Below the pieces are notes generated by a model. That model saw nothing but the letters and a program-made list of their open reading frames with translations, was not told the origin of the DNA and made no database searches. A stretch of DNA of 48,989 nt, taken from assembly GCA_937903605.1 (NCBI GenBank), contig CALCZC010000013.1, forward strand, positions 1 to 48,989. Reading direction: 5' to 3'. This stretch comes from an uncultured bacterium (lineage in GTDB: Bacteria > Patescibacteriota > Patescibacteriia > Magasanikbacterales > GWA2-37-8). The stretch's first letter is position 1. Each line of letters begins with the position of its first letter. Of the stretch, positions 2,556 through 48,989 are shown one piece after another. Both the position numbers and the translations under genes were made by a program.

Positions 2556-2629
2556 GGGCCTGTAGCGTAGCTGGCTAGCGCGTCTCCATGGCATGGAGAA
2601 GGTCAGGGGTTCGAATCCCCTCAGGTCCA
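2556..2629 (+). tRNA. tRNA-Ala(GGC)
   Basis: Cloverleaf: GGGCCTG/CAGGTCC acceptor with G3:U70, anticodon arm TCTCC-ATGGCAT-GGAGA, T arm AGGGG-TTCGAAT-CCCCT. No encoded CCA. Confidence 0.96.
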
Positions 2630-2630
2630 C

Positions 2631-11713: not shown

Positions 11714-11785
11714 GCGGGTATCATATAACGGCTATTATCCCAGTTTTCCAAACTGGTGACACGGGTTCGACTCCCGTTACCCGCT
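11714..11785 (+). tRNA. tRNA-Gly(TCC)
   Basis: GCGGGTA/TACCCGC acceptor, CCAGT-TTTCCAA-ACTGG anticodon arm, GGTTCGACTCC T arm. Confidence 0.95.
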
Positions 11786-11996
11786 CAAAAAATACTTCCG
11801 ATTTATCGGAAGTATTTTTTTGTTTTGTAAGTAACGGGAGGAGAACAGGAAAAGGGAGAAAACGGGAGTTTTCTCTTGTTGAGGAAAGGTATTGGAAAAC
11901 CTGAAGGTTTTCCAAAGAGACGCAAAGCGCCGAGTGAGATTTCCCGTTACCCGCTCTAAATAAAGGTACTCCAGTTTATCTGGGGTATTTTTTTTT
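11772..11996 (+). repeat. tRNA-Gly 3'-end duplication enclosing a palindromic mini-element
   Basis: TCCCGTTACCCGCTC at 11772-11786 and 11942-11956, each followed by a related terminator. Inverted copy GTAACGGGAG at 11831-11840, with internal hairpins. Confidence 0.8.
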
Positions 11997-17894: not shown

Positions 17895-18482
17895 ATGCGA
17901 AAGTATTTTTTTCTAATTTTATTTTTTGCTTTGGTTTTGACGGTTGCCGGTTGTGCAAAAAAACAAGGAGTGACCAATGATAATATTGGTAAAAGAAATT
18001 TACAAACCGAACAAAACAGACAAAGGAACGGTTTTGCCAGTAGTACCTGGCAAAATTTGGGAGAAAAAGGAGGTGTAAAAGATTTGGATTTAGGAGAAAA
18101 AATCACAGTGATGGGATCAACAAATCAAGACGGTAGTATAAATGCCAGCAGGATTATGCTTGGCGAAATGCCAAAAATGGAAAGACCTAACACTACATCG
18201 GAACAATTTCAAAATAGGGAAGGAAATCAGGCTCCCGCAAATATGGACAGGGGGGACAACTCTCGGTTTGGAAACAATGGTGATCGTCCAAGTGGAACGA
18301 TGAATAGAAATTTTGGAGCAGGAATGTTTAGCGGAGAGATATTAAAAATTGACATTAATAATTTTATTTTGAAAACCGAAAAAGAAGGCACAAAAATAAT
18401 TTATTTTACTCCGGGAACGGAAATTTATATTTTTTCTTCTACAACTTTGAAAGAAAATGTAAGCACAGATTTGGTTGAATAA
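17895..18482 (+). CDS. Lipoprotein, DUF5666-like
   Basis: LTVAGC lipobox; DLGEKITVMGSTNQDGSINASRI and FSGEILKID repeats. Confidence 0.65.
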   Translation: MRKYFFLILFFALVLTVAGCAKKQGVTNDNIGKRNLQTEQNRQRNGFASSTWQNLGEKGGVKDLDLGEKITVMGSTNQDGSINASRIMLGEMPKMERPNTTSEQFQNREGNQAPANMDRGDNSRFGNNGDRPSGTMNRNFGAGMFSGEILKIDINNFILKTEKEGTKIIYFTPGTEIYIFSSTTLKENVSTDLVE

Positions 18483-18506
18483 AAAAGCCCCCGCGAATGC
18501 GGGGGC
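18481..18506 (-). terminator. Terminator between convergent genes
   Basis: AAAAAA-GCCCCCGC-gaat-GCGGGGGC. Confidence 0.8.
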
Positions 18507-18520
18507 AGAAAGAACGAATT

Positions 18521-19375
18521 TTAGGCCGTAGCTCCCGTGACCTTTTCCGGCAGGGGCTTGGAACTTTCCGTTTTGAGCGGAAGATCCGGCTTTTCCTCTT
18601 TTGGAAGTTCAAGCATCCTCACCTCACCGATTATTTCTAACCGGAACTTGGTGTTGGGACTGTTGATTTCCTTGAGACGAGGGAATTCCAGGAGCTCTCC
18701 GCCATCCAAACCACGCATGCCGTCGAGCTTGTTGATCGGGGTATTGTGCCAGTGAATCCTGGCCTGACCAAGCTTGGTCATGACCGTTCCCCATCCCATT
18801 GCCCGGTTGTACCAGAGCACGAACGCCTGGTTGTTGCCGAGTTTCGGGATTTTTACCTCTGGTTTGGTCGGGATCTTGTGCACCGGGCGCAAGTTCTGTT
18901 CGGGTTTGGTAATCCCGAGTTTGCGTGCTCCGGCCGTGTCCTCGTTGATCAGTTTGTCCAGAGCCGGCCAGTTGAGTTCCGGAACCATGAGCGTACCCCA
19001 ATGGATACCGATCTCTTCACGACGAACTTCCTGTTCGGTGATGAAAAGTTCACCGTAGTGAGCCACGACCGCGATTTCGGCCATGACAATGTTGCGTCCG
19101 TCGCGCGCTACGATCCGCAAGTTATTCTGCGGGTACTTGGTGTAAATGAACGGCACACCGTCCACGTACGTCAGCTGGGTAGCGATCTCAATACGATAAA
19201 CACTGTCCTTGTTCTCCGAACGGATCGGTTTGAGGATGTGGATGTTTTTTTGCTGATCCACACTCACCACGATCTTGAACTGATCGAAAAGCTGAACCTC
19301 CAGGGACAGCTTGTCTTCCAGTTTCAAATCTTTCCCGTCAAAGGGAAGGCCGTTTTTCAAAAGTTTCAGTTTCAT
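18521..19375 (-). CDS. GC-rich hypothetical protein with a C-terminal cold-shock/OB-fold-like motif
   Basis: ATG 19375 has an AGGAGG SD; VLWYNRAMGWGTV...ARIHW resembles CSD RNP1/RNP2. Base composition is visibly GC-richer than the flanks. Confidence 0.7.
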   Translation of the reverse strand: MKLKLLKNGLPFDGKDLKLEDKLSLEVQLFDQFKIVVSVDQQKNIHILKPIRSENKDSVYRIEIATQLTYVDGVPFIYTKYPQNNLRIVARDGRNIVMAEIAVVAHYGELFITEQEVRREEIGIHWGTLMVPELNWPALDKLINEDTAGARKLGITKPEQNLRPVHKIPTKPEVKIPKLGNNQAFVLWYNRAMGWGTVMTKLGQARIHWHNTPINKLDGMRGLDGGELLEFPRLKEINSPNTKFRLEIIGEVRMLELPKEEKPDLPLKTESSKPLPEKVTGATA

Positions 19376-19419
19376 CTGGCGCCTCCTTGTAGCTGTTGTT
19401 AAAAGGTACAAAACATATG

Positions 19420-19448
19420 ATTATAGCACATTTTAGCCTTTTTGTCAA
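19420..19448 (-). promoter_or_regulatory. Consensus sigma70 promoter
   Basis: Minus strand TTGACA, 17-bp spacer, TATAAT with an extended TG. Confidence 0.85.
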
Positions 19449-19615
19449 GCTTGCTAATTTACAAACATTTATATTAGACTAATCATCTTAAATATATTTT
19501 TTTAATATTTTTTAATATTCAATATTTAATATCCAATATCCAAGTTTATACCATTGACAAAAACCATTTTTTGCCTTATTTTAGATATAATAGTACTTTA
19601 ACAATGGAGGACACC

Positions 19616-20286: not shown

Positions 20287-20315
20287 TTGACAAATTTAAA
20301 AAAAATTACTATAAT
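20287..20315 (+). promoter_or_regulatory. Consensus sigma70 promoter of the tRNA pair
   Basis: TTGACA (20287-20292), 17-bp spacer, TATAAT (20310-20315). Confidence 0.9.
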
Positions 20316-20328
20316 CATTTTACAAAAT

Positions 20329-20402
20329 GCGGTAGTAGTTCAGTTGGCTAGAATGTCTCCTTGCCAAGGAGAAGGTCGCCGGTTCGAATCCGGTCTACCG
20401 CT
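20329..20402 (+). tRNA. tRNA-Gly(GCC)
   Basis: GCGGTAG/CTACCGC acceptor, TCTCC-TTGCCAA-GGAGA anticodon arm, GGTTCGAATCC T arm. Confidence 0.96.
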
Positions 20403-20412
20403 CGAGTCATAT

Positions 20413-20485
20413 CGCGGGATAGAGCAATTGGCAGCTCGCCAGGCCCATAACCTGGAGGTTCTCGGTTCAAGTCCGAGTCCCGCAA
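20413..20485 (+). tRNA. Initiator tRNA-fMet(CAT)
   Basis: C1:A72 mismatch (CGCGGGA/TCCCGCA), CCAGG-CCCATAA-CCTGG anticodon arm, GGTTCAAGTCC T arm. Confidence 0.93.
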
Positions 20486-20670
20486 CTAAAAAGAGACCCA
20501 ATAGTTTGGGTCTCTTTTCGGACTTGAACGCCGGACCGATATTGCGCGACGCAGGCGAGCGAGCGCAATCGGGAGGCGGTGGTCAGACCGAGGAGCCGGA
20601 AGGCGACGAGAGTCGCGACCAAGTCCGAGTCCCGCAACTAAAAAGAGACCCAATAGTTTGGGTCTCTTTT
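20468..20670 (+). repeat. 51-bp direct repeat (tRNA-fMet 3' end + terminator) enclosing a 101-bp GC-rich palindromic element
   Basis: 20468-20518 is identical to 20620-20670. The element starts with TCGGACTTGAAC, the inverse of the T-arm GTTCAAGTCCGA. Confidence 0.9.
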
Positions 20671-20720
20671 AATTTATTTTTTTACTGCTTACCAGCTTAT
20701 AAGCTTACTTGCTTACCAGC

Positions 20721-21773
20721 TCAATTATGGTCCAGCTGTTCCCTATAATATTCATCATACATTTCCCAAAATGCCAAAAGAAGTGAAGCAATAATAGGAC
20801 CGATGATAAATCCTGAAGGCCCAAAAACTACGATACCACCAAGCATAGAAAAAAGAATAAGTAGTGGATGCATTTGCGCTTCTCTACCAACAATTATCGG
20901 GCGCAATAGATTATCAACTGTGCTGATAACAAAGACACCAAAAGACAACATGAAAATTCCTTGCCAAATTTTACCTGATAAAAGTAGAAGTATACCAGCC
21001 GGAAACCAAACCAAACTACAACCAAAAGCTGGTAAAAGTGTCAAAACAAACATTACTAAGCCCCAGATCAGAGCTCCTTGTAACCCGGCGATAAAAAATG
21101 CCAGAGCACCTAAACCTGCTTGTAAACCTCCGACTATTGCTACGCCTTTTAGAGTCCCCAAAGCTGTATTAGTAAATTTTTGAAAAAGTATTTTTTCATA
21201 CTTGTCTCCCAAAGGACAAAGATGCATCAAAGTTTTGAGAATTTTTTCTCCATCACGTAAAAAGAAATAAAGAGTGTAGAGCATTATCAAAACCATGGTA
21301 AAAAATATAATGGAATTCTGGGTAATCTTGGTGATGTTGGTGAAAATATAAGAAGTGATAAATTTAACACCCTCGGAAAATTTTTCCGTCCAGAAACTTT
21401 CATCAAAGTTGAATCTGGCTGTAAAGTGGTTGTTTTTTATAGTTTCCGCCGCTTTGGTCAAAAAAGAAGTTATTTGATCTTGGTTGTTGCTGACCTTATT
21501 GTAAATATCAACCGACTGGGTTATCAAAATTGTCCCGAAAATAAGCAAAGGTATGGCAATGGCAAAAAAAGCAATGATCAAAGTCAAAGTGGCGCTTAAA
21601 TTTGGAGTTTTTAATTTTAAATTTAGTTTTTTATAAAGCGGATAAAATAGCGCCGCAAAAACAGCTGCCCAAAAAATAGGGTAAATAAAAGGGCGAATAA
21701 TATAAATAAAGCTCAAAGTAACTAATAAGAGAGTTCCCAAAAAAATAAGGTTGCGAATTTTAGCAAAGTCCAT
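20721..21773 (-). CDS. AI-2E family transporter (PerM/YdiK-like)
   Basis: Multi-TM; YFFLRDG, DNLLRP, MHPLLILFSMLGG and GFIIGP motifs. Confidence 0.92.
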   Translation of the reverse strand: MDFAKIRNLIFLGTLLLVTLSFIYIIRPFIYPIFWAAVFAALFYPLYKKLNLKLKTPNLSATLTLIIAFFAIAIPLLIFGTILITQSVDIYNKVSNNQDQITSFLTKAAETIKNNHFTARFNFDESFWTEKFSEGVKFITSYIFTNITKITQNSIIFFTMVLIMLYTLYFFLRDGEKILKTLMHLCPLGDKYEKILFQKFTNTALGTLKGVAIVGGLQAGLGALAFFIAGLQGALIWGLVMFVLTLLPAFGCSLVWFPAGILLLLSGKIWQGIFMLSFGVFVISTVDNLLRPIIVGREAQMHPLLILFSMLGGIVVFGPSGFIIGPIIASLLLAFWEMYDEYYREQLDHN

Positions 21774-48694: not shown

Positions 48695-48989
48695 AGTGCC
48701 CGCCCCAAAGGGGCCCCTTCGGGGGTGTGGGAATCTGCTTCGCCTCTCGTCGTCTTCCGACTCCTCGGGCTAGCCACCAGCTCGCGGTTTTACTCGCCCG
48801 CAAGCTCGTAAAACATCGCTCCGCTGTTCTCATCCTGACGCGAGCAAACAGTTTTGCTCGCTCCCCAGACAAAATAACACAGACCAAAAAAGGTCTGTGT
48901 TATTTTGTCTGGGGCGGGAATTCCTCGTCGTCTCGCCGACAAATATCGGCTCGACTCCTTGCCCTGGGCAGCGTCGGATTCACACTGTG
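48695..48989 (-). repeat. Tandem GC-rich palindromic elements related to the tRNA-fMet-associated element
   Basis: The reverse complement of 48744-48778 matches 20578-20612 at 30/35. A perfect 23-bp inverted repeat lies at 48863-48885/48892-48914. Confidence 0.75.

Follow-up and report, generated by a model that had tools for sequence, protein, structure and literature searches.

At T-loop-class tyrosine integrase sites, a direct repeat covers the tRNA gene from its T-loop to its 3′ end. Islands and prophages that integrate into tRNA and tmRNA genes in this manner (tyrosine integrase, T-loop sublocation) are among the closest described counterparts of the elements reported here, which we designate family A. 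Both occupy a tRNA 3′ end and leave the tRNA intact, both produce the T-loop-to-3′-end direct repeat, and in both the native trailer follows the distal copy. Family A differs in possessing neither integrase nor cargo and in measuring 130 nt rather than kilobases. One family A core serves about 30 tRNAs, and the element combines an antisense arm matched to its target with a three-way junction, conserved across the phylum, that folds on one strand. A second comparison is with integron attC and CTX-phi attP(+) sites (IntI/XerCD), where intrastrand pairing of an inverted repeat recreates the target sequence as a duplex stem, and where antisense arm, loop and sense copy lie beside one junction after integration. 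The shape and strand asymmetry of family A would be compatible with that arrangement, but no IntI is present for family A, the stem sequence varies with the target tRNA, and what corresponds to the "loop" is a conserved junction of ~90 nt whose GNRA tetraloop points to RNA.

Like REP/RAYT elements, MITEs and CIMEs, family A is multi-copy, gene-less, structured and intergenic, with a copy number that varies between close relatives. Unlike them, its ends are copies of the neighbouring gene's end instead of fixed terminal repeats, and it is placed behind tRNA genes (a tRNA or tmRNA is upstream in 66 of 80 copies); in contrast to REP/RAYT elements and MITEs, it has no matching HUH or DDE enzyme, Y1 and Y2 transposases being uncorrelated with it. 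Free-standing GIY-YIG homing endonucleases of the T4 SegB type are comparable in that this genome has small GIY-YIG genes clustered at tRNA genes, some of the adjoining tRNAs carry elements, and an empty allele could acquire a cassette through repair of a double-strand break. However, family A encodes no nuclease, its co-occurrence with GIY-YIG genes is weak (15/17 genomes with the element versus 32/44 without), and homing leaves arms that match a new tRNA unaccounted for.

The locus at which family A was recognized is a tRNA-Gly/tRNA-fMet operon in the window, the whole 48,989-nt stretch of DNA that was analysed, from a host genome of 1.13 Mb in 32 contigs. Its features are as follows.

20287-20315, plus strand: sigma-70 promoter of the tRNA-Gly/tRNA-fMet operon, TTGACA-17-TATAAT, matching the consensus at 12/12 positions
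20329-20403, plus strand: tRNA-Gly(gcc), called by ARAGORN and Rfam
20413-20486, plus strand: tRNA-fMet(cat), the intact target or host gene, called tRNA-Met(cat) by ARAGORN and Rfam
20468-20486, plus strand: S1, the proximal copy of tRNA nucleotides C56-A73, part of the working tRNA
20489-20518, plus strand: H1, the family-typical hairpin, 13 bp with a UAGU loop, followed by just 4 U
20518-20529, plus strand: T′ arm, TCGGACTTGAAC, antisense of tRNA nucleotides 53-64, whose initial 8-9 nt form stem P1 with the tail
20529-20578, plus strand: P2 domain of the conserved core, CGCC...GGCG, with an internal GA loop and a 7-bp covarying stem
20581-20620, plus strand: P3 domain of the core, GGUC...GACC, a rod with tandem G.A pairs and a GGAA tetraloop
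20620-20638, plus strand: S2, the tail, a spare copy of tRNA nucleotides C56-A73, whose first 8-9 nt are the P1 partner of T′
20641-20670, plus strand: H2, the repeat of hairpin H, with a U-rich tract after it; the sole terminator-like site of the operon

The initiator identity of the tRNA-Met(cat) is marked by a C1-A72 mismatch. A repeat search of the 49-kb window recovered a 51-nt direct repeat of 100% identity (20468-20518 and 20620-20670, spacing 152), a length of perfect repeat that is effectively impossible by chance in 49 kb. Each copy comprises C56-A73 of tRNA-fMet, CTA, and the 13-bp hairpin with its UAGU loop, and the two copies enclose a 101-nt core (20519-20619) of 68% GC in a genome of 36% GC. 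An initial annotation, made from the sequence alone, had described this arrangement as a small palindromic element duplicating the tRNA end, and its account of the locus proved accurate: the repeat and the GC-rich core are present, the tRNA 3′ end is duplicated from the T-loop onward (C56-A73, 19/19 in the tail), and the left end of the element is the inverse of the T-arm, TCGGACTTGAAC (20518-20529) being complementary at 12/12 positions to GTTCAAGTCCGA (20465-20476). The same arm pairs with the distal repeat copy at 20615-20628, so that the two ends of the element are joined, as had been proposed, through CGGACUUG and CAAGUCCG.

The predicted RNA fold of 20516-20642 is a three-way junction with CGGACUUG/CAAGUCCG as its closing stem (MFE −56.1 kcal/mol, z = −3.2), in keeping with the suggestion that the locus gives a structured RNA, and strong covariation is found in the family. 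When the whole co-transcript is folded, the 5′ strand of the tRNA is able to pair with either S copy. Only CTA separates tRNA-fMet from H, and the A′ arm found upstream of H in some other copies is absent. At this locus the family-wide NNGAAC box at the end of T′ reads TTGAAC, and its trailing AAC is unpaired.

The core was searched for with nhmmer and then with a covariance model, R1, built from the genome's own five copies. These lie behind tRNA-fMet, tRNA-Leu(gag), tRNA-Leu(tag) and tRNA-Asp, with the fifth at the end of the window (48696-48861, minus strand). The fMet copy, itself one of the five seeds, scores 137.2 bits against R1 (E = 9.5e-41, 20513-20646), and the model is supported by more than 80 independent matches beyond the seeds. 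Matches were found in 17 of 61 related genomes, with at most nine copies per genome, and in 36 of 401 genomes sampled evenly from the phylum (9%), spanning 31 genera. Among the matches listed, an exact two-box pattern occurs in more than 120 stretches of contigs from CPR/Patescibacteria metagenome-assembled genomes. The same two-box pattern was not found in IMG/VR viral contigs; 80 IMG/VR stretches with an exact match to a single box gave no match to R1 and are therefore chance matches. The family A unit is ~130 nt long, and all copies are gene-less and between 100 and 170 nt, which speaks against the remnant of a large island that the initial annotation had named as a refutation.

Confinement to one locus had been named likewise, and an origin as the scar of a fold-back or template-switch event had been offered as an alternative. 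That such an accident, or an assembly artefact, at the fMet locus alone could account for the element is extremely improbable. The exact inversion of the T-arm at the left end and the perfection of the repeat are what it would explain; the same core, however, is present at five loci in this genome and at hundreds elsewhere across the phylum, and the sequence of the fMet element is identical in three independent ENA assemblies, so it is not an assembly artefact. A Logan contig ends at the repeat of the fMet locus.

With Rfam 15 at permissive thresholds, no family besides tRNAs matched either element locus in the window, the best non-tRNA scores being less than half of the gathering score, and at the gathering threshold only tRNAs matched in the whole window. 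A full-text literature search found no description of such elements. Family A is widespread among the ultra-small bacteria of the Patescibacteria/CPR and is apparently undescribed.

The order of parts within a unit is hairpin H, T′, the conserved ~90-nt three-way junction (P2 and P3) and the tail S; in most copies, the full order is tRNA, an optional terminator, an optional A′ arm, H, T′, P2, P3 and S. Hairpin H, typically 9 bp with a tetraloop, was found in 77 of 86 copies. T′ is antisense to tRNA nucleotides 65 back to 53, that is, to the 3′ strand of the T-stem and the T-loop, and always ends in NNGAAC, with the variants GAGAA (40 of the 86 copies), TCGAA (26) and TTGAA (11). The boxes GAACGCCGGAGCGAT and CGCGAGGCGGTGG are more than 90% invariant. 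A GGAA loop caps P3 in 51/86 copies. The 51-bp repeat did not hold up as a signature of the family: only the 19-nt tRNA segment 56-73 is typical, and the remaining ~32 nt at the fMet locus are hairpin H, which belongs to the element and was duplicated along with the tRNA segment. At that locus H doubles as a weak terminator of the tRNA.

Covariation was assessed in 86 further copies aligned by fitting to R1, a fit that favours the structure. Paired cells amount to 94%, against 31-45% when the partners are slid, compensatory changes are seen at 28 of the 37 pairs, and none of 500 shuffles attained any of the covariation measures. Compensatory changes at 20 of the 37 pairs were already evident in the five-sequence MAFFT/RNAalifold alignment. 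G.U pairs outnumber A.C combinations 156 to 24, or 88 to 24 after removal of one conserved U.G pair, and the tRNA-sense strand is therefore the one that folds. We thus show that family A folds on the tRNA-sense strand, with T′ paired to S, directly behind an intact tRNA. Several known motifs suggested by eye (hammerhead, group II domain V, SRP domain IV and kink-turn) fail in other copies and were rejected. In other copies the P3 rod is replaced by plain A-U pairs.

The optional A′ arm, upstream of H, is antisense to the 3′ strand of the acceptor stem. It is clear (at least six of seven positions) in 16/76 copies, about a fifth, compared with 7% of controls, and in some copies it is a perfect antisense of 9-12 nt that completes an acceptor-like stem. 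Since only a minority of copies carry A′, a general acceptor-stem mimic was rejected.

The initial annotation's proposal of a small non-autonomous element tied to tRNA genes is well borne out beyond this locus. A tRNA or tmRNA gene on the same strand lies 14-280 nt upstream in 66 of 80 copies, with about 30 anticodons represented, and the other 14 copies are mostly at locus edges or behind tRNAs missed by ARAGORN. The tail is identical (19/19) to the last 19 nt of the upstream tRNA in 32 of 65 copies and matches it at 17 or more positions in 46 of 65, against a control mean of 10.7. In the fMet copy the tail is 19/19 identical and the tRNA ends 26 nt before the R1 match. Changes in the local T-stem are matched by covariation in T′. 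As a rule the repeat stops precisely at the 3′ end of the tRNA, and it contains CCA only where CCA is encoded by the gene, so the tail is a copy of the gene and not of the mature tRNA.

In this genome, H-type hairpins are limited to family A elements plus one that stands alone behind tRNA-Ala(tgc), and H is therefore not a general terminator of the genome. Terminator scoring in the fMet operon picked out only H2, H1 failing to score because just 4 U follow its hairpin. Lying between the operon promoter and its only good terminator, the fMet element most likely forms the 3′ trailer of the tRNA transcript, as judged from these sequence signals. No terminator separates tRNA and element in 40 of 66 copies; the other 26 are behind a terminator, which weakens the argument for co-transcription in their case.

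These features raise the possibility, towards which we lean less than towards insertion, that family A is a functional small RNA coupled to tRNAs, in which the tRNA 3′ trailer would be processed to a stable three-way-junction RNA. The closing stem copies the T-stem of the neighbouring tRNA and, in some copies, the acceptor stem too; the product could be a tRNA-like minihelix presented to tRNA end-processing enzymes, or could serve as regulator or decoy towards a factor recognizing the 3′ halves of tRNAs. Phylum-wide conservation of the core in both sequence and fold, with the GGAA tetraloop at a fixed distance, folding on the sense strand, and a position inside the tRNA transcription unit would all be expected of such an RNA. 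So would the decayed tail of locus L024, which still pairs through G.U (CUUCUUUCC with GGAGAGAGG), and the perfect 9-12-nt A′ arms. Less easily accommodated is the rarity of A′, absent at fMet and clear in only about a fifth of copies.

Comparison of related species revealed considerable turnover. The set of tRNA genes that carry family A differs between them. At the fMet locus, genomes G002 and G004 contain one unit, its repeat just ~20-27 nt long and its second terminator different, G005 contains two exact 152-nt units, G003 retains a remnant comprising H and the first 6 nt of T′, and three other genera are empty, with ordinary terminators. By comparison with these loci, the state of the present genome (G000), a unit plus S+H, is 1 1/3 tandem units of family A. 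In G000 a solo H is present behind tRNA-Ala(tgc), and a full element occupies that position in G001 and G004. The tRNA-Ala(ggc) gene in the window (2556-2630, plus strand) is empty, with its own terminator directly after it (2556-2660), and in G002, G003 and G005 it is followed by H-T′-core-S and then by the same native terminator. From this pair of empty and occupied alleles, the inserted block is the element plus one S, and the native trailer follows the distal S. Copies at tRNA-Val and tRNA-Pro were seen in G002 only; they have perfect repeats of 88 nt and at least 55 nt, respectively, that include the native terminator, and are apparently young. Long repeats of this type exist in apparently young copies, but for most repeats the tRNA 3′ end is the exact boundary, and a variable-length target duplication with TPRT-like topology was rejected as a general rule.

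P2 identity between different tRNA loci of the same genome reaches 92-98% (Asp/Leu-gag in G003, Ala-tgc/Ala-ggc in G002 and Asp/Leu-tag in G000) and is 58-69% between orthologous loci of sister species. The P3 rods of the G000 and G002 fMet copies are unlike. The arms, and oddities such as an insertion in the Asp tail, stay with the locus, and cores have therefore been copied between loci within fixed arms. If family A were a functional RNA, the differences in copy number would reflect loss and gene conversion; against this, the element is dispensable, being present in only 9% of the sampled genomes of the phylum, and its presence at orthologous tRNAs varies among species of one genus.

Of the 45 tRNA genes in this genome, at least 14 have a downstream copy of their own 3′ end. 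In eight of them the copy accompanies an unrelated core, family B; one of these genes, tRNA-Gly(tcc), is in the window, where a second family A copy also occurs.

11714-11786, plus strand: tRNA-Gly(tcc), then a terminator, then a family B element (whole region 11714-11956)
11831-11846, plus strand: antisense arm of the family B element
11941-11956, plus strand: tail of the family B element, a copy of the tRNA-Gly(tcc) 3′ end
48696-48861, minus strand: second family A copy in the window, at the contig end, with H at 48840-48861, T′ and core at 48837-48737 and the tail at 48727-48696

The family B core at tRNA-Gly(tcc) reads GGAAAAGGGAGAAAACGGGAGTTTTCTCTT...GAGGAAAGG...GGAAAACCTGAAGGTTTTCC, and eight such copies are present in the genome. 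Further cores exist, for example family D, and several elements may stack behind one tRNA. Since families B and D follow the arm design of family A, that design is common to unrelated cores. A shared arm design on unrelated, stackable cores looks like the logic of insertion rather than of one function, a further point against a small tRNA-coupled RNA.

Taken with the turnover data, sequence comparison leads us to assign a probability of roughly 0.55 to the reading that family A is a selfish, non-autonomous insertion element that targets tRNA ends and finds its target by base pairing. Entry would occur by recombination within the segment of the tRNA gene from the T-loop to the 3′ end, and the tRNA would stay whole because the element brings, or duplicates, S. 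Loss would occur by recombination between the two S (or S+H) repeats, leaving a clean site or a solo-H footprint or, alternatively, producing tandem units. The antisense arm would match the target by base pairing in folded single-stranded DNA or in RNA, and the catalyst would be a host or trans-acting factor, for which the small GIY-YIG nucleases at tRNA genes are a candidate. We conjecture that matched arms may arise by template switching that corrects imperfect inverted repeats. Against insertion, all of these patterns could come from old vertical inheritance, frequent loss by recombination between repeats, and gene conversion. The lack of a correlated enzyme, the lack of a copy in IMG/VR and the acquisition of arms that match a new tRNA also weigh against it, and a complex junction that carries a GNRA loop and is conserved phylum-wide is found more typically in functional RNAs than in junk.

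No Pfam recombinase was found in the fMet element or in ORFs within 2 kb of it, where the neighbouring genes encode an AI-2E transporter, a polysaccharide-synthesis protein and unknown products. Clustering of all ORFs within 3 kb of the 80 copies gave no recurrent protein; these neighbourhoods contain one large serine recombinase gene (at locus L053, confirmed by Pfam), two recombinase-like ORF fragments and four small GIY-YIG genes. Co-occurrence was scored in the 61 related genomes, 17 with family A and 44 without, counting family A only, so that other cores may blur the comparison. RVT_1 is present in 3/17 genomes with the element and 28/44 without, Y1_Tnp in 5/17 and 12/44, Y2_Tnp in one of the 61, the large serine recombinase in 7/17 (none in G000) and 25/44, and small GIY-YIG proteins in 15/17 (mean 3.8) and 32/44 (mean 2.25). 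RVT_1 is absent from G002, G003, G005 and G027, each of which has 8-9 copies.

A retroelement (SINE-like, target-primed or derived from a group II intron) was rejected on the basis of the RVT_1 distribution (3/17), a tail without CCA unless gene-encoded, and the absence of any Rfam intron match. Helpers of the IS91 (GTTC target), IS200/IS605 and REP/RAYT types were rejected because Y1 and Y2 do not co-occur with family A, and a large serine recombinase because it shows no genome-wide correlation despite the gene neighbouring L053. That RVT_1, Y1, Y2 and the large serine recombinase all failed to emerge as a mobilizing enzyme is again what a functional RNA would predict.

Mobilization in trans by a tyrosine integrase, with family A as a miniature, CIME-like (attL/attR) derivative of an integrase-borne tRNA island, would account for a direct repeat that spans the same T-loop-to-3′-end segment as at T-loop-class integrase sites, and for the native terminator after the distal copy. 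We nevertheless regard it as quite unlikely. No full-size relative exists among the covariance model matches, all of which are 100-170 nt long, with none in IMG/VR, and the ~30 tRNAs served by this one core family exceed the site specificity of one protein. The duplex beside the crossover is without inverted core-type sites, and the complementary arm lies ~100 nt away and is kept as a folded structure with G.U pairs. Some repeats, moreover, hold the native terminator, unlike an attP.

The genome of the window contains nine small (~90 aa) GIY-YIG genes, encoding the catalytic domain only, on contigs C7, C25 and C28. Five of the nine are within 250 nt of a tRNA gene (permutation mean 0.24, P < 5e-5), and one is directly upstream of the tRNA-Leu(gag) pair that carries a family A element. 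A link between these proteins and family A is no more than suggestive, and is the sole lead for a helper. It also bears on a bolder version of the insertion reading, which we consider rather doubtful, namely that family A represents a new class of nucleic-acid-guided mobile elements without protein genes, whose arms are re-templated from each new target. The three-way junction would then serve as a recombination scaffold or ribozyme, the antisense arm (nucleotides 53-65, sometimes up to 76) as a guide pairing across the T-loop of the tRNA gene, and the sense tail as a copy that rescues the gene end; a host factor, such as the ~90-aa GIY-YIG proteins clustered at tRNA genes, might provide catalysis.

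If insertion is guided and protein-less, it would give DNA a new means of finding a site through base pairing, with arms that are reprogrammable in principle, and would explain why, in some of the smallest bacterial genomes, one tRNA gene in three has a GC-rich appendage. If the elements are instead functional RNAs, they would form a large unrecognized RNA class tied to tRNA biology, in a phylum that accounts for a big share of bacterial diversity. Under either reading they affect annotation, through spurious ORFs, contig breaks and pseudo-tRNA fragments, and a 130-nt element with one tRNA gene makes a compact, testable system.

The contig-end elements on the minus strand (48696-48989) are an array behind a tRNA located past the contig end. 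The tail of the family A copy there is split by a GC-rich hairpin insertion, CCCCCGAAGGGGCCCCTTTGGGG, and the copy is preceded by the 3′ part of another core type (GCTGCCCAGGGCAAGGAGTC..., 48907-48989) whose end resembles the 3′ end of tRNA-Leu(taa). In the second tRNA-Leu(gag) copy (C7:52275-52400, minus strand, corresponding to about 2276-2401 of L001), a GC-rich palindrome of 20-22 nt, CCTGCCTGCCGGCAGGCAGG, is present in the D-loop region, and the 5′ acceptor strand is mismatched. The same palindrome is inserted in P2 of the tRNA-Gln(ttg) element of G003 (G003:C18), and could represent another type of insertion, smaller still.

Short runs of a GCTTAC-based repeat of 6-12 nt occur at 20680-20725 of the window (TGCTTACCAGCT, twice) and at about 43620-43700 of C7, just past convergent gene ends and adjoining tRNA terminators. 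At 18450-19450 the window contains a single-copy island of ~900 bp with 50-59% GC in the 36% GC genome. It has overlapping antisense ORFs of 296 aa (minus strand) and 218 aa (plus strand), neither with a Pfam match; the 296-aa ORF is preceded by a near-consensus promoter, TTGACAAAAAGGCTAAAATGTGCTATAAT (about 19420-19448), a 29-nt sequence that recurs at several loci in the genome. Contig C10 (36 kb) has a GC content of 27.5%, far below the rest of the bin, and five tRNAs, one with the anticodon UCA that ARAGORN assigned to tRNA-SeC; the contig could belong to a phage or have been mis-binned, and this tRNA could be of the suppressor type.
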